IMG/VR virus record: IMGVR_UViG_3300042398_000969 | Span: 64,001-128,000 of that record | DNA length: 64,000 bases | Source: a virus | Direction: 5' to 3' (one strand) | Part shown: piece after piece, positions 7,569 to 64,000 of the stretch | Layout of the letters: every line of letters starts with the position of its first letter | How positions within the stretch are numbered: the first letter of the stretch is position 1 | Program-made: the position numbers and the translations under genes | The notes under the pieces: generated by a model | Database searches by the model: none | Seen by the model: only the letters and a program-made list of their open reading frames with translations | What the model was told of the DNA's origin: nothing

Positions 7569-8270
7569 TTAATTATTCCCTGTGGTACCTAATCTACCAT
7601 GAAGAATATATACTAAATCTATTATTCTTAACCGACTACGTTCATCGGTATTTCCGCCTAAATTTATTATTCTAAGTGTATCTGTACTTCCAAATAAACC
7701 ATTAAAATGGTTAGATAAACAATACCAACCACCATAAGCACCACCAGCATAAAATTGACCACTAACTCTAAAGTTTGCAAATGTATTAAGGCTATTATTC
7801 CCGTCTAATGTTCTAGGTTCACTATAGTTTGGTGAAGGGTCATTAGTTGTTTGAAATTGGTGATATGCACCGGCTTGAGTGCTTAACATCGCAACGTGTG
7901 TGTATGAATAATTATAACCAGGGTGTGGGCTATCTCCAACACCTAATTGTGCCCATAAAGATGCTTTACCAATATCACCTATAGCCGTTCCGGAGTTATT
8001 TCTTCTTCCATAATTTGTATCATGTAAATTATTATACCAAGTACTATGATGTGGAAACATTGGTATTGTTAAATCAATATATGCATTACCTCCAGCCGCA
8101 GCTCCTGGTGCATAATCACCAGCTGAGGTAAATAATTTTGTATCAGCTGTTGAATTATTATATCTTGGATTTAATGTTATAGTACCAACAGTTGTTGATG
8201 CATGTTGCACAATTGGTATTTGTATTTGCATGTATTGTATTGGTAAATTCGCACTTGATAATATTGCCAT
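7569..8270 (-). CDS. Hypothetical fibre tip / receptor-binding protein
   Basis: Beta-rich Gly/Asn/Tyr composition; directly follows fibre 8272..10683. Confidence 0.45.
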   Translation of the reverse strand: MAILSSANLPIQYMQIQIPIVQHASTTVGTITLNPRYNNSTADTKLFTSAGDYAPGAAAGGNAYIDLTIPMFPHHSTWYNNLHDTNYGRRNNSGTAIGDIGKASLWAQLGVGDSPHPGYNYSYTHVAMLSTQAGAYHQFQTTNDPSPNYSEPRTLDGNNSLNTFANFRVSGQFYAGGAYGGWYCLSNHFNGLFGSTDTLRIINLGGNTDERSRLRIIDLVYILHGRLGTTGNN

Positions 8271-8271
8271 T

Positions 8272-10683
8272 TTATTCTATTATTTTTTCTAATTTTATTT
8301 TAAATTTCTCCCCACTTCTATTGTTTAACATATAGATATCATTCTCACCTTCTTGTAACGTCCAATCACCCCATGTTCCATCAACAACGTTTTGTTTTCC
8401 TTCGTTTGATAGGTGTAAGTCAGTTGTGTATACGTGGTTCCATCTTAGTGATGTGGAACCTAAATTGTGTGTTGCGTCACTAACTGGAAGTATTGCACCT
8501 CTTACATTAACTTCGCCGCTAGATTTTATTATAAATCTATCCGCGTATGCCCCACTACTATAACTTCTAAAATAAAATCCATCGGTTCCCGCACTATCCA
8601 TTCCGAATTGTGTTTTACCAGATGAGTATGATATTGAAAATGAAGATACTCCTGGTTCTGTTATTGAAATTGGGCCATATGTGGTAAATCCACCACCAAT
8701 AGGTGTTCTCCACCTCTCAATCCAAGATGTTCCGTTATGATTCCAATATGATAATTCACCACCGCTACTATTAAAATCAAAACTACCTTTATATGTTCCA
8801 CCAGTATCAAATCCCAAACTTGCCAATGTTGATGAACTTGGTCTTGAACCAATTACAATTGACCTATCATTTAAATCGGACGTTCCGATTGTATTTGGTT
8901 TTACTTGTAATGTACCGGCACCACTTACACTTAATCTTTCTGCAAACGCACCACCAGATGCTTGTGTAAAAAATGATAAACCAATTGCATCGGTACCATT
9001 TTTAGATGCTTGAATTTTAACGGTTCCCGAATCGTATAAAAATCTACCCCAACCGTTATCACCATCTCCACTTGCAATTGTTCCTGAAACTTGTAATGCA
9101 ACTGTTGGTGTTAGATATCCCACACCAACTTTCCCATCTCTTAGAACAGAGAATCTACTTGTGTATGCACTACCGTTATAATATCTTAAATTAAGTATTC
9201 TATCTAAATCATTTGCCCCTTGTATATCAACAATCAAACCAATATCTTGGTTTCCATTACCTCCAGCGGTTGTTTGTCTAACTATTAAAGAAGTTCCATT
9301 TGTTGCAAATGGTTTGTTAAAATATCCAGATTGTGCTGTTAGTGATAAATTAAATGTGACATCACCGGCTGGCGTTATTTGATATGAATATACCTCATTT
9401 GTGTTATTATAAAGACCAAAATTACCATTATTTAAACTATATAGGTGCCAATCTCTACCTGTTGTACTTGTTGTATTGTTTATTCTAACACTTGCGGATG
9501 TACCAGTACCTACCGATGTTACAGACCCACTAACAATTTGATTATTTGTAAAAGTGTTTGAACCAGTTGTTGCCAACCGAGCTATATTTGTTGTTGACAT
9601 CACATCAACTTGAACACTACCAGATACAACCGATATACCATTAAAGAATGATCCAGAATGGATTGTTGTTCCGTTTAGCACTTGTGAACTTCCTGATACA
9701 ACTCCACTCGGTAAATTGGCAATTGTTTGTGCTGAGCTAGATACCAATCCCGAAGGTAACTGAGCACTACCACTAACAATACCACTTGGTACCCCACTTA
9801 ATCCACTATATGTGATTTGAGACGATCCTGAGACCAATCCTGAACCAGGAACACTAATACTTCCACTAACGGTTAAGCTCCCTGTAAATGAATGTGTGTC
9901 ACCTAATTCGTCACCAAATTTTGTACTACCACTTCTATATAAAATCGAACTACTAATATATGTTGTTCTTAATTCTTGTGTTTCAATAAATCCAGTCACA
10001 ACTAATGAACCAGTCATTGTTACACTATTACCAAACTGAATAGCATTACCATCAGATGATAATACCTTGTTACCCGCATAAATTGTTGTTGTACCTTTAA
10101 GTGCAATAACACCTGTTGTTGGGTCTAATATAACATCACCACCGCCCGACGTTGCAAGTGTAATGTTTCCGTCGGCTGCTTGTAATGTAATTGTATCTGA
10201 ACCAGCTTCTAATATTTTAAATGATTGTCCAGCATCTGTTGTTATTTGAAGTTCCTGTGTTGTACTTCCTAATACCTTTGTTCCATCGATATATAATGAT
10301 GCAGATGATAAATATAAGTGTCTAAATTCATGTGTTGACGAACCTAAATCATAGGTACCATTAACAGCCGGTACAATTGAACCAGATATTGTTTGGTTAC
10401 CAACAAACACATTAGAACTAGTGGTTGCCATCATCCCTTTTATTGAAGATGAGACGTCGTTCATTGATGTCATCATTGATGACGATAAACTACCTATACT
10501 TGAGGTCAATGACGAAGATAAACTTGTCATAGATGACGCCATTGATGATGATAGTTGACCAATACTTGCCGATACGGAAGATGATACACTTGTAACCGTA
10601 GATGCTACGGATGACGATATTGATGTAATGTTTTCCCCACCACTTTGGAGAGAACCTGTAACTAAGAGATTATGGACTTTCAT
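8272..10683 (-). CDS. Tail fibre protein
   Basis: ~200-aa module shared with 14149..15807 and 16120..19086; beta-shaft repeats; C-terminal DLHLSNE...WTLQEGE domain. Confidence 0.75.
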   Translation of the reverse strand: MKVHNLLVTGSLQSGGENITSISSSVASTVTSVSSSVSASIGQLSSSMASSMTSLSSSLTSSIGSLSSSMMTSMNDVSSSIKGMMATTSSNVFVGNQTISGSIVPAVNGTYDLGSSTHEFRHLYLSSASLYIDGTKVLGSTTQELQITTDAGQSFKILEAGSDTITLQAADGNITLATSGGGDVILDPTTGVIALKGTTTIYAGNKVLSSDGNAIQFGNSVTMTGSLVVTGFIETQELRTTYISSSILYRSGSTKFGDELGDTHSFTGSLTVSGSISVPGSGLVSGSSQITYSGLSGVPSGIVSGSAQLPSGLVSSSAQTIANLPSGVVSGSSQVLNGTTIHSGSFFNGISVVSGSVQVDVMSTTNIARLATTGSNTFTNNQIVSGSVTSVGTGTSASVRINNTTSTTGRDWHLYSLNNGNFGLYNNTNEVYSYQITPAGDVTFNLSLTAQSGYFNKPFATNGTSLIVRQTTAGGNGNQDIGLIVDIQGANDLDRILNLRYYNGSAYTSRFSVLRDGKVGVGYLTPTVALQVSGTIASGDGDNGWGRFLYDSGTVKIQASKNGTDAIGLSFFTQASGGAFAERLSVSGAGTLQVKPNTIGTSDLNDRSIVIGSRPSSSTLASLGFDTGGTYKGSFDFNSSGGELSYWNHNGTSWIERWRTPIGGGFTTYGPISITEPGVSSFSISYSSGKTQFGMDSAGTDGFYFRSYSSGAYADRFIIKSSGEVNVRGAILPVSDATHNLGSTSLRWNHVYTTDLHLSNEGKQNVVDGTWGDWTLQEGENDIYMLNNRSGEKFKIKLEKIIE

Positions 10684-53091: not shown

Positions 53092-53736
53092 TTAACGATT
53101 AGTGTTATTTAGAAAATAGTTCTTATCGTTTGACAAAAACTCATTAACGCTAAATGTTGTTATTGTTTCCGAGTTTGGGTTATTTTGAACTTTATTTATC
53201 ATTTTTTCGGTATGTCTACCGTTTATACCATAATTTCCTTGAACCAAGTAATCACCCAATAAAATAAAATTTGGATCATTTCTTAAATCCTTCTCTTCAA
53301 AATCATCATTAATTTGTTTTTTACTATAACCAATTTTTTTATGAATTATATTATCAGGTTTAAACTCGTTTTCAACCATTTCGTCATATATTAAATTTGA
53401 TGGCCTTTGTTCATACCACGTAACATCGACTAAAAGATTATATTCATTTAACCCCATATTCATTATAAAATTTAAATCATTTTCAATTTTTAAATCTGTA
53501 TGGTTTCCACCAACAATACACATATCCAAATCCCACGTGTTGTTAAAGTCAAATAAAACTCCACCCATTAAGTACATATCATATTCTTTTATAATCATTG
53601 ATTTAACATATAAATTAAATAAAAAATCATAAACTTTTTGATATGACGGTCTTGTCCAATGACTTGTTGTTGTTACAACCCCTCTTTGAAAAAAAATACT
53701 ATCTTTTAAATTTGCTACTTTATTAAATGTGCTCAT
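53092..53736 (-). CDS. Putative Pol-beta-superfamily nucleotidyltransferase
   Basis: LMGG-x9-DLD plus third Asp (LVDV). Confidence 0.5.
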   Translation of the reverse strand: MSTFNKVANLKDSIFFQRGVVTTTSHWTRPSYQKVYDFLFNLYVKSMIIKEYDMYLMGGVLFDFNNTWDLDMCIVGGNHTDLKIENDLNFIMNMGLNEYNLLVDVTWYEQRPSNLIYDEMVENEFKPDNIIHKKIGYSKKQINDDFEEKDLRNDPNFILLGDYLVQGNYGINGRHTEKMINKVQNNPNSETITTFSVNEFLSNDKNYFLNNTNR

Positions 53737-53747
53737 AATTTATATTT

Positions 53748-55280
53748 TTAACCACTATATCCTCCGGAACCTCCTCCAGAACCTCCTCCAGAACCTCCAC
53801 TGTCTGGAACTGGTGTTGCAGTTGGACTCGGTGTTGATCCATCGCAAGGTGAACATCCTGTATCTAATATAGTAAATACCGGTGTACTATAAACAACCGA
53901 TTTATAGTTATCTTTTGCAATTACCTTCCAACAGAATGTGTTTAAGAACGAATCGTTAACTCTAAACGTACCATTAATTCCAATTGTTGGTAATGTATCG
54001 GACCATACTGTTACACTATAGGATGCATTATCACATCTCACACCATCCATTTTATATTTTTTTGGCGTTGCATTACAACTTGAACAATCACCATATCCTT
54101 GGAACATTGGTTGACCTAAAACAAACGGTCCAGAATCTGTAATTTGATATCCATCAAAACCTTCACTTGGGTCTGTAATTACAAATTGTGGTCCTAGATT
54201 TTTATTAATGGTCATACATCTTGGATTCCCAGCAACAACGCCGTTTTCATATAATTGTATTCCATATGTTCTACCGGTGGTCATACCTAATAGCGAATAT
54301 GCTATAATATTTTCACCCGTATCACAAGTTACACCGCTATATCCAGTTATTGTGAAACCAGTAAATGGCGGGTCACAAGCAGCACAAGGATTTGCACCAG
54401 CTACTGGTGAAACACCATCTAAATTATATGTATAACCCGTAACATATTGTGTTTGGACTGCAATGATAGATAAACATGAATTACCAACTTGATATACCGT
54501 TCCTTCTGTTAACTGTGTTGAACTTCTTGCTATTGCCACGCCACCATAATTTTGACCAAAACCACAAGGATCTAGTGGATTTGAAAGTACGTATGATGTC
54601 GATGCTGGATTTTGCATTGATAATGTTCCAATATTTGCTAAAGTATCACAACCAGGTATTTGTATTGGTGCACTAAATCCAGTTGCAGTTATTGCTGTAT
54701 ATGAATATCTCATATCATTACAGTCGCCCATTGCGTAATAATAATATGATGGATCAATAACAACATTTGTTGTTGGTGTTGGTGTTGGTGTTGATGTTGG
54801 TATCACTGTCGTTGCTGTTGGTGTAGGAGTTGCTGTTGGGTTAGGTGTTGGCGTTGGGCCAATAACAACAGTCGCTGAACCACCAGAGAAATCGCAATTA
54901 GGTGTAGGGCTAGGTGTTGGACTAGGTGTTGGTGTTGGTGCAATATATACTGCGCTACCAACATTAGGAAAATAACAATAATTTATACAGTTATCATAAA
55001 CTTCAGCCTCATTCGTATATATATTTTCTATAACGTAATTAACATCACCGGTATCTCCAGTATATGTTAATTTAAACCAATATTGTGTATCAAAAGATGC
55101 GTCTGTAAAAATAATAGGATTTGTGTTATAGTCTCTACTTGAACTATTAGGATACAAAGAACCATAAGACGTGTATCCTGTTGCTATAACAGAGTCATCA
55201 CCAGCAGTTTTACCTGTTTTATATGATAAGGTAAAAGCTTTAGGTGAATTAATTCCATATAATCTTATGTTTAATCCCAT
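53748..55280 (-). CDS. PT-linker, Cys-rich virion protein
   Basis: PT tracts, CxF strands, CxxC-terminated small domains. Confidence 0.65.
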   Translation of the reverse strand: MGLNIRLYGINSPKAFTLSYKTGKTAGDDSVIATGYTSYGSLYPNSSSRDYNTNPIIFTDASFDTQYWFKLTYTGDTGDVNYVIENIYTNEAEVYDNCINYCYFPNVGSAVYIAPTPTPSPTPSPTPNCDFSGGSATVVIGPTPTPNPTATPTPTATTVIPTSTPTPTPTTNVVIDPSYYYYAMGDCNDMRYSYTAITATGFSAPIQIPGCDTLANIGTLSMQNPASTSYVLSNPLDPCGFGQNYGGVAIARSSTQLTEGTVYQVGNSCLSIIAVQTQYVTGYTYNLDGVSPVAGANPCAACDPPFTGFTITGYSGVTCDTGENIIAYSLLGMTTGRTYGIQLYENGVVAGNPRCMTINKNLGPQFVITDPSEGFDGYQITDSGPFVLGQPMFQGYGDCSSCNATPKKYKMDGVRCDNASYSVTVWSDTLPTIGINGTFRVNDSFLNTFCWKVIAKDNYKSVVYSTPVFTILDTGCSPCDGSTPSPTATPVPDSGGSGGGSGGGSGGYSG

Positions 55281-55994: not shown

Positions 55995-58900
55995 TTATAC
56001 TTGTGCACCACCGCCGCCACCAAGACAATCATTACATGATGTCCATACACTTGAATATGATCCATCCGTTAAATGTGTCGCCTCTTGATCACATGTAGTA
56101 CCAACATAATAATCTACTTGTAAGCACACATTATTTACTTTAACAGCTTTAGTTCCACCTAAGAATGCACTAACCAATAAATCTGGTGATGTCATATATC
56201 CAACTAGATTATTTGAACAATTAATTACTTGATATTTGTAATATGATGCTGGTTCAGGTATCGCTGTTATACCACTGTTTACCACACAACCATTTGCGTC
56301 TGTAACCTCTAAACAATACCCATATGTTGTTAAATTATCTACATTGAATGTTGTACCAAAAGTTGATGTGCTATATGTTCCAACTAAAGTTCCACCACAT
56401 GTTGTATATGGTGAACTTGTGTCAGCATATAATCTATATGTTTTAGGGAATACACCACCACTTGATGTTAATTCTAAAACACCTGAGCTTGGTGAAGCAC
56501 ATGTTGGGTATGTAATAATTGTTAACGACGCAGATTGTGCCGTTGGTTGGCTAATTCCTTGACCATATGATGCCACACAATTATTACCATCTTTAACAGA
56601 TATTGTATACGTATCTGATATTAAATTATTAAATATCTTTGGAGGATAATAATAATTGTAACCATCAATTGAAACTTGTCTAGGTGATGTTCCGCCAACT
56701 AATGTTGTCACTTCAATAAAACCATTTGAACCACCATAACAAGAAACATTACCAACATCCACTATTCCAAGCGCTGGTGTAGATACTGTTAAGTTATATG
56801 ATACAATTGCAAAACAACTATTATTATCTAAAACTTGTATTGAATGATTACCACTTGGTAAGTTATTAAAAGTATGTGAAAATTTAAATGCTGTTAACGC
56901 TGAATATGAACCACCATTACTACTAATACAAAATTTATATCCTGAAGCATTTGGTGTTCCACCGCTACCCTGAATTGTTAATGATCCATTTGTTGAATTG
57001 TAACAAGTTGGAAAAGATGCACTAGTAATAGTGCCAGCCACCGCTGACGGTATAGTTACGGTTGCTGAATATGATTGTTCACAACCGGCACCATCTTTAA
57101 TAAAAATACTATATGTACCGCCACCTAATGATGAATAAGTTACTGGTAAGTTTGCATATGTTCCACCAGAGCCAAGTTTTGCTTGATAACCAGACCCAGA
57201 TCCTCCAGATCCACTAGAAACACCAATGGTGCCTGTTCCCGCATTACAATCTGGATTTGTAACAGATATTGTTGCATTCGGAGCTGATTTGGATAATAAC
57301 ACATAATCTATGGCCACACAACCATTACTGTCTTTAGCATATAAAGTATATAATCCTGTACCTAAACTACTAAAAGTTCCGCTGGCTTGATAATTTGAAC
57401 CATCTCTTGAATATGTAAAACCACCCACACCGCCTGAACCTGAAGCTGTTATTGAACCATTTGTACCATTCCAACATGTTGGATTTGTACCAGATACTGA
57501 TATAGATACCGCACTTGGTTGTGTTACTGTTTGATTATATGTTTGAACACAACCCGCGCCGTCTTTAATATATATTGTGTATGTTCCCGCAGATAATGGG
57601 TTGGAGTATGTAACTGGTAAATTTGCATAAGTTCCACCTACTCCGTTTTTAGCTTGGTATCCTGAACCACTTCCTCCAGTTCCATCACTAACCGTGATTG
57701 CACCTGTTCCACCACCATTACAAGCTACATTTGTAATTGAAAAAGTTGCATTAGGTGCTGATTTAGATAAAGTTGTTGCCGCTGAAGTTACACAGTCATT
57801 TGCATCCTTAATATAAATTGTTTTAGTCCCAACGGTTTGCCCAGTAAATGTTGCACTAGATTGATATGTTAAACCATCTGAAGAATATGTGTATGGTGAT
57901 GTACCACCTGTAGGAGATGCTGTAACGCTACCATCACTACCATTATAACATGTTGGATTTGTTGATGAAGATATTGAACCAAAAAGTTGTGTTGGCTCTG
58001 TTATTGTTACAGAATATGTTCTAGAACAAGCAGATTGATCAATAACAGTTACTGTGTATGTTCCAGCAGTTGGTACACCAAACGTTGCTGGTAAATTCTG
58101 ATATTGAAATGCACCATAATTTACTTTTGCTTGATATGTTCCACCGTTACCACCACTACCATTTGAAATTGTTATTGAACCGCCTCCATTTTGATAACAT
58201 GGTAAATTTGTTTGTGAAATAGTTGCACTTACTTGTGTTTTATTTAAACCGGTTGTATTTGTTCTAATACATCCACTAGCATCTTTAACATATGTGGTAT
58301 ATGTACCATTTGTTAAACCTGTAAATGTTAAACCAGATTGATAATTTGAACCATCTATTGAATATGTATATGGCGAAACACCACCACTTACACTAGATAA
58401 TGTTATTGAACCGTTTGAATTACCATTACAAGTTGGTTCTGTACCTGTAGCAGTGAAACTAATAATTGCAGGTTCTGTTATCGTTAATGATGTTAATTGA
58501 CCAACTTCATTATTTGAATCTTTAACATATAATGAATATGTTTGTGCTGTTAAACCTGTAAATACGTTACTTGATTGATAGGTAGTACCATTTATTGAAT
58601 ATGTATAACTACCTGAACCACCACTTGGACTAGTTATTGTTATTGTACCATTAGATCCTCCATTACATGTAACATTTGTTGAAGATCTAGATGCTGTTAT
58701 AACAACATTGGTTATATTGATAGTTATAACCACATCAAAATATAAACCTAAAGCATCAGTTGATCTAACTTTAATTAGATATGTACTTTTTGTTTCATAA
58801 TCAAATACTACTTTAGATTTTAAAACATTTCCAGCAATAGTAAAACTAGTATAATCTGGATATGATGAAGTATCTACAAATGAATATGTAAAAGTATCAC

Positions 58901-60122
58901 CCGCATCAGGATCTGCTGTTGAAAAAGTACCAATTGTTGTACCAGTTGCAACATTTTCAGATATTGAAGATGATGATAAATCAATTCCTGTTGGAGCCTC
59001 ATTAACACTAGTTACGGTAACTGAAACAAGACCATCATATGTTAATCCACCAGCATCTGTTGTTCTTATATTTAATAGATACGAACTTTTTGTTTCAACA
59101 TCGAAAACTTCTTTTGATGTTAATTGACCGCCAGAACTTAAATTAAAACTATTATTGTCTGGATATGAACCAGTATTAACAAATGAATATGTAAATGTAT
59201 CACCGGCATCTGGATCTAACGTTGATAGTGTACCAGCGTTTGTACCAATTCCACTATTCTCAGGTATTGTGCCAGATATGCTAATACCAAATGGTGCTTC
59301 ATTTACGTTATCAATATAAATTGTAAATTGTTTATCAAAGAATTGACCAACACTATCGGTAGTACGAATTGCCACTGTATATGAAGTTCCTGTTTCATAG
59401 TTAAATAATATTGAGTTAACTAAAGTATTACCACTAGTAGTGAAAGGTGCAGAATTTACTATAGAATATGTATGGGCATCATTACTATCACTTGACGCTG
59501 TTGCTAAATAACCAATCACCGTACCAATAGCTGAATTTTCGTTTATTCTATCATAACTTAATGAAAGATCTGTTGGTGCATAATTAACTGTTGTATCAAT
59601 TAAAAATAAACAATTAGGTGTTGAAGTTGGACTCGGTGTTGGCGTCGCTGTTGATGTCGGTGATGGTGTTGGTGTAGGTGTGGCGGTTGAACTCGGTGTT
59701 GGAGTTGGTGTTGCTGTTATAATATTTGTATCTATTCCAAAATCACAATTAGGTGTTGGAGTAGGACTAGGTGTAGGACTAGGACTTGGAGTTGGACTTG
59801 GAGTTGGACTTGGTGATGGACTTGGAGTTGGTGTTGGACTCGTTGTTGGAGTTGGTGTAGGTAATATAGTTTCATCAATATTTGATTGACATTCTGCAAT
59901 AACCCTAGCATTTGTATTGTATACAATTATTTTAGTTGCACTATCTGGTACACTAACGTGTAAACCTAAATTTGATATTAATTCAGTGCGTGTAACACCA
60001 CTAGCAAGAAATGATGTATCAAAATTGGTTGCAAGATTTGCAGCGTTAACTTGGTCATAATAAACATTATAAGGACCCGCGTCAGTACCAGAAACAATCT
60101 TTACATAAAACTTCTTTGCCAT
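55995..60122 (-). CDS. Large adhesin-like protein: PT linkers, three cadherin domains, SprB-like repeats
   Basis: [29 protein letters not shown] (cadherin); C..GS.G.I....SGG..PYTYS..G...F..L..G.Y...KD..GC (SprB). Confidence 0.8.
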
Positions 60123-60129
60123 CTATAAT

Positions 60130-60408
60130 TTATTTTCCGCAACCACAATCTGATTCATTATTTGTTGTGATTAACGATTTTGTTACACTATTAAAATAGT
60201 TTTTATTATTTTCAATGAAATCATTCGCTTTCTCCATTAATAACTCATTTACTTGATCATTGATATAGCTAATGTACATCTCATCATTTAAAGTAAATAG
60301 TTCTCTAACCATAACTTTAACACCATTAATTGTAAATAAATCATTTATATCAATGGTATAACCGTCATTTGTGTATGTTAAAATTTTATTTGTTATTATT
60401 ACTTCCAT
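60130..60408 (-). CDS. Small hypothetical protein ending CGCGK
   Basis: 92-aa ORF packed between adhesin genes. Confidence 0.6.
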   Translation of the reverse strand: MEVIITNKILTYTNDGYTIDINDLFTINGVKVMVRELFTLNDEMYISYINDQVNELLMEKANDFIENNKNYFNSVTKSLITTNNESDCGCGK

Positions 60409-60409
60409 A

Positions 60410-62134
60410 TTAAACTACTTGACCTGTACAAGGATTTATTGTTAAGAAATTATTGTTTGGACAACCACTATAAATTGTTTCATTATTAAGTTTTAACGTA
60501 ACCCAGGTTACGTTAGTGTGACATTGTCCATTTCCAAAACCAAGATTTACATTTATTGGTGTTGCACAAACTAATGCAAAACTTATATTACCACCAGTTG
60601 ATGATGCTGCAATATCTTGTGCTTGTTGCGTTGTTAGTGTTAATGAGTTATATCTAGCATTACCACTAGTAACCCCAGGAGGATAATTAAATTGATCATT
60701 TGACCCACCAGTGTTACTTAAATAAACTGTACCTATATTAATATTATTACCTCTTAAATAAAAAGTTGCAGCATTACATGTGTGTCCACCAGGACAAGGT
60801 CCTAATGTTGGGCTATATTGAACAATAAATTCCATATTAGCCAAACAGTTTACTACTTCAGTTAATTCAGGTGTAATTGTTGTATCTAAAGCGCAATCAA
60901 TAGTTGCTGTAGGTGTTGGACTTGGAGTTGGTGTTGGACTCGTTGTTGGAGTCGGTGACGGTGATGGGCTAGGACTAGGCGTTGGCGTTGGTGTAGCCGT
61001 TATAATATTAGTATCAACACCAAAATCACAATTCTCGGTAGGAGATGGTGTTGGTGTTGGTGTCGCTGTTGCTGTTGGGCTCGGCGTTGGGCTAGGAGTT
61101 GGTGTTGGGCTTGTTGTTGGAGTTGGCGTTGCTGTTATTATATTAGTATCAATACCAAAGTCACAATTAGGTGTTGGGCTAGGTGTTGGAGTTGGTGTAC
61201 TAGTTGGTGTTGAGCTTGGTGTTGGTGTTGGACTAGGACTTGGGCTAGGTGTTGGGGTTGGTGTGGCAGTAATAATATTTGTATCAATACCGAAATCGCA
61301 ATTAGGTGTTGGACTCGGTGTTGGAGTTGGTGTACTAGTTGGTGTTGAGCTTGGTGTTGGACTCGGTGTTGGTGTAGGTGTAGCTGTAATAATATTTACA
61401 CCAACGTTAATATCACAATTAGGGGTTGGACTTGGGCTCGGAGTTGGACTAGGACTAGGTGTTGGGCTCGTTGTTGGTGTTGGTGTTGCTGTAATAACAT
61501 TAACTCCCATTCCAAAGTCACAATTAGGTGTAGGGCTTGGAGTTGGTGTAGGACTAGTTGTTGGTGTTGGCGTTGCTGTTATAATAATAACACCAACGTT
61601 AATATCACAATTAGGGGTTGGGCTTGGAGTCGGTGTTGGTGTAGCTGTAATAATATTTACACCCACACCAAATGTACAATCATTGGTCGGTGTAGGAGTT
61701 GGTGTTGGTGTGGCAGTAATAACATTTGATGTTACTTGAAAAGTACAATCAGATGTTGGCGTTGGTGTTGGGGTTGGCGTTGCTGTAACAACATTAGTAT
61801 TAACACCAAAATTACAATTTGCTGTTGGACTTGGTGTTGGTGTAGGTGTGGCAGTTGGACTTGTTGTTGGTGTTGGGGTTGGTGTTGCGGTTGGTAATGG
61901 ACAGCTACCCAAATTAAGATTTATTGATGTAACACTACTTGTCCCATTAATTGTCCATCCAGTATTTGGTGAATCACTTGTTGTTGTATTTCTAGGTTCT
62001 CCACCATATGGCCATGGATTTATTGTCCAATAGTCACTACCATTCCATCTAACATTACATGTAATGCCACTAAGACTACCTTGCCAAGAAGGTTTTCCGT
62101 TATAGTGCCCGTTATATGTAAAGGTTGTTAACAT
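60410..62134 (-). CDS. Cys-strand/PT repeat protein with Cys-rich C-terminal domain
   Basis: Ten Cys-initiated strands (e.g. [10 protein letters not shown]) separated by PT spacers. Confidence 0.75.
60866..61816 (-). repeat. Coding tandem repeat: [10 protein letters not shown] + (TP/SP)n
   Basis: Nine complete units visible in the translation and as (ggtgtt)n tracts. Confidence 0.9.
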
Positions 62135-62155: not shown

Positions 62156-64000
62156 TTAAGGACACGCACCAAGATAACATGCAACACTTAGAGTTATTGT
62201 ATCACCACTATTAATTACCACTCCAGTTATTTGTGGGAATGGATTAGATGTGAAATATGATGTATATGATGGACTTGTTGATCCATTTTTATATATGAAA
62301 ATCACACCACAATTTCCGTTACCTGGTAAATTGGTTGTAACATTACATTGGATTGTATTTGTTGATCCATAATTAATACCACCAGGATTTGTTTTACCAC
62401 CAGCTAGTGTTGATGTTAATGGGAATGTAGATGGCCCATTTAATGTGTTCATAAATGTACCATTAATACCAACATCATTTAACGTCCCATTACCACAATC
62501 ATTGTTTCTAACCGTCCAAATTGATGTTGGTGGATTAGTTGCTGTTGGTGTTGGTGTTGGTGTTGAAAACGAAATATCAACACAGAAATCATCAGCTGCT
62601 GTTGGTGTAGGTGTTGCTGTTGGCGTTTGAGTAGGTGTTGCTGTTGGTGGCACCGGAGTCGCTGTTGGACTTGGGGTTGGTGTTGGAGTCCTAGTAGGTG
62701 TTGGTGTAGGAGTTCTAGTTGGTGTAGGTGTAGGTGTTTGTGTAGGAGTTGGTGGCGGTGTTACTATTGGATATGACCCCACACAAGTATATGCCGCAGC
62801 ACCGGTACAAACATTTGAATAATTTCTTAGTAAAGATCCTATTGATGGTACTGTTGTACAAGCAATATTATCAGTGTAATATTGTTGCATTGATGAACCA
62901 ATAACCTCAAAACCAACATATTCATGTTCTACTAAAGCTAAATAATTAGAATTACCATTAAAGGTTATTAAATTTGTTGGTTTAGTTCCTGCTACATTTA
63001 TGTTATAATACATATTAATGTTACAGTAATTTAAATCAACGGCGGTTACTTCAATTAGTTCTCCTTTCTCTGTTATAATATAATCACCAGTGTCATAATA
63101 ATCAGATGGATAATCACAACATGGCTCTATTGGTGTTTCTGGTTTTATTTGTAAAAATTCTGGTGATCTTGTATCAAAAACATAACCACTTCTTTTTGTG
63201 ACCTTGCCCGTATTTTCGTTAACATCTTTATTTGTATAGATTCTAAATTTAGTTGTTGGTAAAACATCAAAAACAACTGTTGTACCACTATTTGTAACAC
63301 CACTAATTACACTAGTTTTAACGGAACCTAGTGAATCCATATCATGTATTGTGTATGTTGTATATGTGTATGAAAAAGAATAATTGTTTGTTGATTCAGC
63401 AAAATCAAACGCACTACTTGATAGTGATGAGCATGAAAGATAATTTGCGGATACAACTACATTTCCATTAGAAAGATCTTTAACAGATCTCTTTACTAAA
63501 GTACCTGCAGTAATATAATTTTGTATATCAGCCGATGTTGTTGAACTATTAATTGTTGCGCCGCTTACTACTAAAACTTTGGTATCATGTTTTAAACCAT
63601 AATTGTATGAATTTCTATATTGAACCCTTGGATGTATAGTAAAACCAGTATTAACAACAATTGGTTGATCCGGTACTTCTGTTGGAAATTCAACATATTG
63701 TAAATTCAAACCATCAATTCTCACTTTTTTATCACAGTTAGCCGCATCAGTAAATAATAAATCTATAACCTCATCTTCATACACGTTTGATATTTTAAAT
63801 TGACATGTATTCCCGCTAACTTGTGCAAAGGTTGTATCGGTGTATACTGGGTTATATCCAGAAAATGCATTTATAACCGGTATTGAGTTTCTTTGTACAT
63901 AAATTCCCCAACCATATGTTTCACCAGATTGGACAGTAGCACCAGTAATATTAACAATAATATCAGATTTTAATTTACATGCGGTAGATCCAGTATAAAC
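62156..64000 (-). CDS. Large structural protein, C-terminal part (5' end outside window)
   Basis: Frame stays open from 63784 to 64000 by manual translation; PT linker near C-terminus. Confidence 0.75.
   Translation of the reverse strand, partial: VYTGSTACKLKSDIIVNITGATVQSGETYGWGIYVQRNSIPVINAFSGYNPVYTDTTFAQVSGNTCQFKISNVYEDEVIDLLFTDAANCDKKVRIDGLNLQYVEFPTEVPDQPIVVNTGFTIHPRVQYRNSYNYGLKHDTKVLVVSGATINSSTTSADIQNYITAGTLVKRSVKDLSNGNVVVSANYLSCSSLSSSAFDFAESTNNYSFSYTYTTYTIHDMDSLGSVKTSVISGVTNSGTTVVFDVLPTTKFRIYTNKDVNENTGKVTKRSGYVFDTRSPEFLQIKPETPIEPCCDYPSDYYDTGDYIITEKGELIEVTAVDLNYCNINMYYNINVAGTKPTNLITFNGNSNYLALVEHEYVGFEVIGSSMQQYYTDNIACTTVPSIGSLLRNYSNVCTGAAAYTCVGSYPIVTPPPTPTQTPTPTPTRTPTPTPTRTPTPTPSPTATPVPPTATPTQTPTATPTPTAADDFCVDISFSTPTPTPTATNPPTSIWTVRNNDCGNGTLNDVGINGTFMNTLNGPSTFPLTSTLAGGKTNPGGINYGSTNTIQCNVTTNLPGNGNCGVIFIYKNGSTSPSYTSYFTSNPFPQITGVVINSGDTITLSVACYLGACP

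Follow-up and report, generated by a model that had tools for sequence, protein, structure and literature searches.

Gene neighbourhood of the fibre gene

The window analysed here is a stretch of 64,000 nucleotides that corresponds to bases 64001-128000 of a 169-kb IMG/VR virus record with a CheckV completeness of approximately 50%; a related contig has a size of 251 kb. All large ORFs (100 aa or longer) in the window were located on the minus strand, except one ORF of 227 aa and short ORFs that overlapped minus-strand genes. The gene content of the window included tail fibre proteins, one of which carried a Peptidase_S74 chaperone domain, SbcC/SbcD-like nucleases, a primase and a sigma factor, and the genes for ribonucleotide reductase and a DnaB-like helicase were found just outside it.

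The gene under study encodes a protein of 574 aa (P0001), and its features are collected in Table 1. Six large ORFs lie between this gene and an upstream gp6-like baseplate wedge gene, which has the same operon direction; the last of the six encodes a protein of 1617 aa. Downstream, we found a 92-aa ORF followed by a 1375-aa protein (55995-60122) with cadherin and SprB repeats, whose PHROG match was annotated as 'virion structural protein'. This position is that of the baseplate/tail-fibre module of a tailed phage, and the synteny was kept in related contigs (L002 and L007-L012). The product of the 574-aa ORF is a baseplate-module fibre of a large phage and is probably a receptor-binding protein. 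The SprB repeats, together with homologues from Chryseobacterium, suggest that the host of the phage probably lies within the Flavobacteriia.

Table 1. Positions of the fibre gene, its parts and associated elements in the window
Feature	Position	Strand	Remark
Fibre gene (P0001), very probably fused	60410..62134	-	Open 574-aa frame; without Pfam family
Putative N-terminal anchor domain N1, aa 1-78	61901..62134	-	88-91% identity to the N-domains of P0158 and P0159
Probable gene-A-derived part: first linker and strands 1-5, spacers 13,13,13,19,25	61403..61900	-	Alignment to the 380-aa gene of L008
Probable recombination junction, aa 244-271 (strand 6 and start of spacer 6)	61322..61405	-	Overlap of the gene-A and gene-B alignments
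Probable gene-B-derived part: strands 7-9, 35-aa spacers	60896..61321	-	Collinear with the 403-aa gene of L002
Neck strand (tenth 'strand'), aa 414-423	60866..60895	-	Cys414 in 70% of C-domain relatives
C-terminal tip domain (tip A, C-dom A), aa 424-574	60413..60865	-	Beta-sandwich in the AF2 model
Conserved 92-aa partner gene, Cys-rich C-terminus	60130..60408	-	Next after the C-dom A gene in relatives
19-aa island peptide copy in the SprB/cadherin gene 55995-60122	59700..59756	-	6-8 silent and 0 replacement differences from two P0001 copies

Sequence searches placed the protein in no named family. The only PHROG match of the 574-aa protein was a weak one to phrog_15511 (function not known) at aa 327-569; this PHROG also matched the Pro/Thr region of the 1617-aa protein, and part of the match may therefore be low-complexity. 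No curated Pfam family matched the island/Pro/Thr array. Searches of GenBank phages with megablast and tblastn, with the low-complexity filter on and in a set that may lack close relatives, gave no match, PDB sequence searches matched only low-complexity Pro/Thr stretches, and a literature search on Pro/Thr-linker/Cys motifs in phage fibres returned nothing relevant.

Several further observations were made on the neighbouring frames. An ORF of 214 aa among the fibre genes (53092-53736, minus strand) carried a GG...D.D nucleotidyltransferase-like motif and matched neither Pfam nor PHROG at the thresholds that were applied. Opposite the Pro/Thr arrays, long GVGVG-type ORFs were present as mirror artefacts, both in the window (61263-61739, plus strand) and in L002 (7880-8677, minus strand); in L002, the public gene call chose this artefact and missed the true 339-aa fibre gene A at 7734-8753 (plus strand).

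Domains and Cys-led islands of the fibre protein

The first-pass annotation of this DNA had listed ten Cys-led strands in the 574-aa protein and had counted the spacers between them by hand. A script recovered exactly the same strands, starting at aa 107, 130, 153, 176, 205, 240, 279, 324, 369 and 414, and the same Pro/Thr spacers of 13, 13, 13, 19, 25, 29, 35, 35 and 35 aa. Nine of the 10-residue strands stood as free repeats, whereas the tenth was found to be the N-terminal neck of the C-terminal domain. At the DNA level, the repeat units measured 69, 69, 69, 87, 105, 117, 135, 135 and 135 nt, and Tandem Repeats Finder detected the same periods. Low complexity prevented any useful reading of gapped pairwise identities between entire repeat units. 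The strand cores of the units shared just 61-89% DNA identity with one another, the gene was collinear with independent metagenome contigs, and a 10-strand relative was base-for-base identical in two different samples. Misassembly of the repeat region is therefore unlikely.

AF2 modelling of the full-length monomer gave pLDDT values below 50 across aa 92-400, with no secondary structure and no pairing of strands. Within N1, beta strands were placed at aa 4-40 with pLDDT values of 62-75. When the N-terminal 82 aa were used as a query, we retrieved P0158 and P0159, which had a like array and a different C-terminal domain (tip B). Modular combinations were seen on both sides: N1 was joined to tip A in our phage, L009 and L012 or to tip B in P0158 and P0159, and tip A was joined to at least four different N-termini among homologues. 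In the monomer model of aa 405-574, the neck strand lacked regular structure (pLDDT values of 62-65), and its Cys414 was also kept in tip-A relatives without Pro/Thr linkers.

The C-terminal region was predicted with much higher confidence. The AF2 model of aa 405-574 had a mean pLDDT of 89.1 over the whole model, with core blocks of 81-97, and the C-terminal 150 aa adopted a beta-sandwich with two helices. The tip A family is small: clustering at 90% identity gave 42 clusters, and 123 representatives were obtained at 50%. Among 47 diverse relatives, H451, C453, N474, R494 and H539 were invariant; these residues could bind a metal or ligand, or could make up a catalytic-looking Cys/His/Asn set. 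The Cys pairs 430-569, 447-558 and 523-538 covaried, being gained and lost jointly in a disulphide-like manner, and neither C453 nor the neck residue Cys414 had a covarying partner. The three covarying pairs imply an oxidised extracellular state, and they leave the island cysteines unpaired within the chain.

Foldseek searches of the tip A model against PDB and BFVD returned nothing at an E-value of 0.001 or better. The best fold matches in the VIA wide search were the C-terminal domain of 1olp (Z-score 5.0, rmsd 4.0, 100 aligned residues) and the carbohydrate-binding module 2xhh (Z-score 4.9, rmsd 2.8, 85 aligned residues), both within the background range. All fold matches in PDB, BFVD, VIA wide and the ESM Atlas (by shape) were weak (Z-score of 5 or less) and were CBM36/60-, PLAT- or C2-like or generic beta-sandwiches, with the exception of a Bacteroidota 'PKD domain' cluster that belongs to the same family. 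A feature search of the Atlas gave no match, and no solved or named relative of tip A was found by fold or PDB sequence searches.

The small gene that follows the tip A gene was conserved. We found the 92-aa gene after the tip A gene in L002 and L003 (90% identity) and also in L008, L009, L011 and L012; the protein ends in a CGCGK tail, which is CKCDSCQ in the Chryseobacterium homologue. The tip domain also ends Chryseobacterium proteins of approximately 990 aa that carry the source label 'PKD domain' and have no Pro/Thr/island array. One of these, P0028, lies in a contractile-injection-system cluster after tube, VgrG-like, PAAR and gp25 genes and two large ORFs without family match, which by their position are presumably baseplate genes, and an 87-aa homologue of the 92-aa ORF (26% identity) comes next after the Chryseobacterium fibre gene. 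From the gene order of Afp and PVC, we take the position of P0028 to be that of the fibre. The joint occurrence of the tip domain and the small ORF in phages and in the Chryseobacterium cluster points to a conserved fibre-tip cassette, in which the 92-aa protein may act as a fibre chaperone or tip partner. The likeness to the fibres of contractile injection systems (Afp13/Pvc13 position) thus lies in the same C-terminal domain and the homologous small ORF after baseplate genes, while the Chryseobacterium proteins differ in their length and in the lack of the array.

The Cys-led strands, hereafter islands, have the consensus T-P-N-C-D-F-G-V-D-V-x-I-I-T-A-T-P. A set of 56 distinct copies taken from 16 proteins gave the module T-P-[N/D]-C-[D/S/N/E]-F-G-[V/I]-[D/G]-[V/I]-x-[V/I]-[L/I/V]-T-[A/P]-T-P-T-P, with F at +2 in 51 of the 56 copies and G at +3 in 41, followed by T-x-T-P-T-P. 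Cys was present in 56 of 56 copies; however, the copies were gathered from Cys positions, so that this count holds by construction. The island is amphipathic: C, F, V, V and I line a hydrophobic face, and the other face is polar. The same motif forms the neck of the tip domain in relatives without a Pro/Thr linker, such as 'DCDFIPSFTNVII' in P0007. Additionally, the related strands reported earlier in 55995-60122, 53748-55280 and 62156-64000 were all located, and in neighbouring genes Cys-led strands also close N-domains or open the next domain. The Cys-led strands are real and conserved elements, isolated within Pro/Thr linkers and recurring in neighbouring fibre genes.

A second island type, C-[DE]-[FL]-[SG]-G-[GN]-[SA]-x-x-V-x, was observed between Pro/Thr linkers in 53748-55280 (NCDFSGGSATVVIG) and in P0013 and P0014 (CELGGNAVYI). 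Among known short elements, an RTX-like calcium roll did not fit the hydrophobic register of the islands by eye, and a lipobox, an intein N-C junction and the Bacteroidota D-S/T-x O-glycosylation sequon were ruled out by eye on the residue pattern.

Comparison of the island copies gave clear signs, at the level of sequence, that the islands are selected as peptides. An identical 19-aa peptide was found in two copies in the 574-aa gene and in one copy in the SprB/cadherin gene, and the underlying DNA differed at 6-10 of 57 nucleotides, all of them silent. The dN/dS of the islands against the closest fused relative was approximately 0.1, which is similar to that of the folded domains. Furthermore, N was present at +7 in 20 of 21 islands (two genes) in our phage and L009 and in 0 of 35 islands in four other phages, where L stood at +9 in 31 of the 35. 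These silent-only differences, the low dN/dS and the clade-specific residues all argue for selection on the island peptide. The +7/+9 change left residues specific to single units in place, for example Q or E at +3 in unit 2. The shared change points either to short-patch gene conversion or to co-adaptation, in which the islands became matched to each other or to a partner that they share.

Two adjacent fibre genes and the spacer series

In related contigs, the DNA matching the 574-aa gene was distributed over two genes with a protease-like gene between them. Gene A consists of N1, a short-spacer array and tip B, and gene B consists of a different N-domain (N2), a long-spacer array and tip A. 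In the contig of P0159 (L007/L008), the order in aa was 1621 - 380 (gene A with N1, six islands and tip B) - 405 (protease-like) - 480 (gene B with N2, islands, a mid domain and tip A) - 92 - 1370, and L002 and L011 had the same unfused layout; the corresponding order in our phage was 1617 - 574 - 92 - 1375. The 405-aa protease-like gene (phrog_20754, GDSGS-type motif) was located at L008:11145-12362, L002:8755-9972 and L011:3849-5063, and it was absent from the fused loci L009 and L012.

Upon alignment, nucleotides 1-812 of the 574-aa gene (aa 1-271) showed 83.5% identity to gene A (the 380-aa gene of L008), and nucleotides 731-1712 (aa 244-570) showed 82% identity to the 403-aa gene B of L002. 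DNA collinearity with L008 ran to nucleotide 780 of gene A and picked up 2.5 kb further on, within gene B. We also found a second fusion in L012, whose 569-aa gene was composed of aa 1-231 of L002 gene A (93.6%) and aa 63-403 of L002 gene B (93.8%); its junction lies at the gene A neck and the first island of gene B and differs from ours. The 574-aa gene is very probably a recombinant in which the island/Pro/Thr arrays of two adjacent fibre genes crossed over. Such a crossover would have removed tip B, the protease-like gene and N2, so that N1 with its short-spacer array came to precede the long-spacer array and tip A. The simpler route is that one array recombined with the other and the 2.3-2.5 kb in between were lost; insertion in the relatives is the alternative direction. 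Neither tip B nor the protease-like gene was found in the 169 kb of our phage; because the record is about 50% complete, their loss holds for those 169 kb only.

A variable end was also observed in the 1617-aa upstream protein (62156-64000 and beyond; G000:C1:126156-131009; L005:57-4910), which has Pro/Thr linkers, a 'DDFCVDISF' island and a small domain at its C-terminal end. The small domain varied among relatives (L009, L012 and L002), which suggests that the exchange of Pro/Thr/island modules reaches that gene too.

The two parental arrays account for the spacing that had drawn attention to the gene. The first-pass annotation had regarded spacers that never decrease as unlikely to arise by chance. 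The nine spacer values can be arranged in 10,080 distinct ways, one of which is non-decreasing, so the order is indeed not random, although the units are not independent given their mosaic origin. The view that the series needs a functional explanation is not supported, since it follows from the A/B fusion. Gene A arrays had spacers of 13,13,13,17,23,20 or 13,23,23,20 aa (13,13,13,17,23 in the 380-aa gene of L008), and gene B of L002 had spacers of 33,33,33,37 aa. In our fused gene, 13,13,13,19,25 came from A and 29,35,35,35 from B. The fused 569-aa gene of L012 had 13,23,23,27,33,33,33,37, and the fused 588-aa genes of L009 and L010, with ten islands, had 13,13,13,13,19,19,29,29,41,29. The gradient thus arises from the fusion of a short-spacer array to a long-spacer array, together with slippage of xP dipeptides. 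As read from these series, it is the footprint of the A/B join and not a designed ruler. The fusion does not account for the mild rise within gene A arrays themselves (13 to 23), which is common to orthologues. Inter-island spacers were nearly all odd (13 to 47 residues), as expected if the ends are fixed (T-A-T...P-N) and slippage proceeds in xP dipeptides; the exceptions were one spacer of 36 in P0013, next to a CELGG-type island, and the 20-aa spacers to the tip B neck.

A graded spacing that is itself functional, with nodes dense near the baseplate anchor and sparse distally to give a tapering stiffness or a molecular ruler, appears rather improbable. All three fused genes rise from the N- to the C-terminus, ours and that of L012 without any decrease and that of L009 with one inversion, and all gene A arrays begin with 13-aa spacers and finish with 17-23 aa. 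However, the join of a short- and a long-spacer array explains the rise, the gene A orthologues amount to one evolutionary observation, and the gene B arrays are flat. In more distant proteins with this tip domain, the series were flat or decreasing, namely P0013 (36,31,27,31,27), P0014 (47,31,31), P0015 (37,31,27), P0016 (37,31,27,31) and P0049 (31,31,35,41,35,35). Such non-monotone or decreasing series among homologues are an outcome that the first-pass annotation had named beforehand as speaking against its view.

Possible role of the islands

The number of islands among relatives was 1, 2, 3, 4, 6, 7, 8, 9 or 10, and two proteins (orf1375 and P0006) contained a single island. An island must therefore be able to work without sister islands in its own chain. 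As the likeliest of the roles considered, we tentatively propose that the islands are nodes at which parallel fibre chains associate or become cross-linked, although on its own this reading falls short of being probable. The fibre would be built from an N-terminal anchor, an extended Pro/Thr shaft of about 335 aa with amphipathic islands of 10-12 residues, and a disulphide-rich beta-sandwich tip. In an oligomeric fibre, the islands of parallel chains would meet in register and bury their hydrophobic faces (C, F, V, V, I). Outside the cell, under oxidising conditions, the lone island Cys would cross-link the chains and the Pro/Thr rods would be held in register; with several nodes, different chain pairs could be linked at different nodes. 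Taken as a whole, a recombinant baseplate fibre with island nodes is, in our judgement, the probable explanation of the locus and the best of those considered.

As points against the nodes, one Cys per chain per node cannot fully pair in a trimer, and the clade-wide +7/+9 change could reflect short-patch gene conversion instead of co-adaptation. The disordered array in the monomer model is compatible with any model in which a partner is required. In a docking reading, other virion proteins, for instance the 92-aa protein or the N-domains of nearby fibres, would take the islands as donor strands or docking sites, and the fibre would be a scaffoldin-like platform. In favour of this, a lone island is too short to fold, several genes of the cluster carry islands of one type, the clade-specific residues are common to the islands of a genome as expected for a common partner, and a conserved small protein always comes next after the gene. 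Nevertheless, we consider docking unlikely. Apart from SprB and cadherin, the cluster proteins contained no cohesin, dockerin or other Pfam domain, a copy number of 1 to 10 among close relatives would let the stoichiometry shift freely, and the 92-aa gene tracks the tip domain and not the islands, as it also occurs in the Chryseobacterium cluster, where the fibre lacks islands in an array.

It is less likely still that the islands have no role in the protein, as DNA cassettes that aid module exchange or as hitch-hiking copies of the domain-boundary (neck) strand. Both junctions seen fall at islands or neck strands, N- and C-domains are variously combined among homologues, and the tip neck carries the same motif in proteins without Pro/Thr linkers, including P0007; yet the coding DNA of identical peptides differs at 10-18% of its sites, and only silently, which is the reverse of DNA-level conservation, and the dN/dS of about 0.1 points the same way. 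An intramolecular core, in which the strands of a single chain stack as a beta-sheet or through disulphides and the Pro/Thr spacers form loops, as the first-pass annotation had offered, is very improbable: the alternating hydrophobic pattern would suit it and a 13-aa extended linker may be roughly long enough to run back along a 10-residue strand, but the full-chain model predicted no such core, island number varies down to single-island proteins, and islands are freely gained or lost by recombination.

Relative to the node reading, a bolder form of the proposal is that the array represents a new type of fibre shaft, in which polyproline-II-like Pro/Thr rods are stapled by 10-residue beta/Cys nodes that pair between chains and possibly between virion fibre proteins. 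We regard this as doubtful at present. If true, it would explain the concerted change of islands across separate genes, and the spacing of the nodes could tune the reach and stiffness of the fibre. The hinges of IgG3 and IgA1 consist of repeated rigid Pro/Thr-rich segments punctuated by Cys residues that link parallel chains. The Pro/Thr-rich segments and Cys residues of the fibre resemble them by analogy; there is no homology, and interchain disulphides are only proposed here.

The Pro/Thr linkers of cellulases and cellulosomal scaffoldins are similar in that long extended linkers join modules of variable number. In scaffoldins, however, the modules are cohesins of about 140 aa that bind dockerins, while the 'modules' here comprise 10-12 residues. 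Pfam searches assigned P0001 to no family and matched its neighbours to SprB and cadherin alone, with no cohesin or dockerin among them, and the protein was thus not recognised as a cellulosome-type scaffoldin.

Mosaic tail-fibre genes of T-even phages were reportedly described by Tetart et al. in 1998 and 1996, the 1996 work dealing with duplications of a small adhesin domain. The two cases are alike in that short conserved motifs are interspersed in a fibre or adhesin gene, that exchange at such motifs reshuffles anchor and specificity modules, and that copy number changes by duplication. In gp38, glycine-rich motifs separate hypervariable segments (PMC3157838). The motifs found here differ in being Cys-led beta-strand islands in Pro/Thr linkers, not His boxes or polyglycine motifs, and the exchange differs in that two neighbouring genes are joined and those in between are lost; the sequences are unrelated. 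The behaviour of the fibre gene matches known phage fibre mosaicism, in which modules are swapped by recombination at conserved motifs. The island/Pro/Thr shaft element, its concerted change across genes and the recurrent A/B fusion are apparently not described in the libraries searched.

These results indicate that a pattern that looks designed can stem from ordinary recombination between neighbouring fibre genes, and they document that, within a group of large uncultured phages, receptor-binding proteins have repeatedly been fused and split. If the islands are interchain staples, they would represent a simple fibre building block of programmable length and would provide an annotation marker for such proteins in Bacteroidota phages and contractile injection systems.
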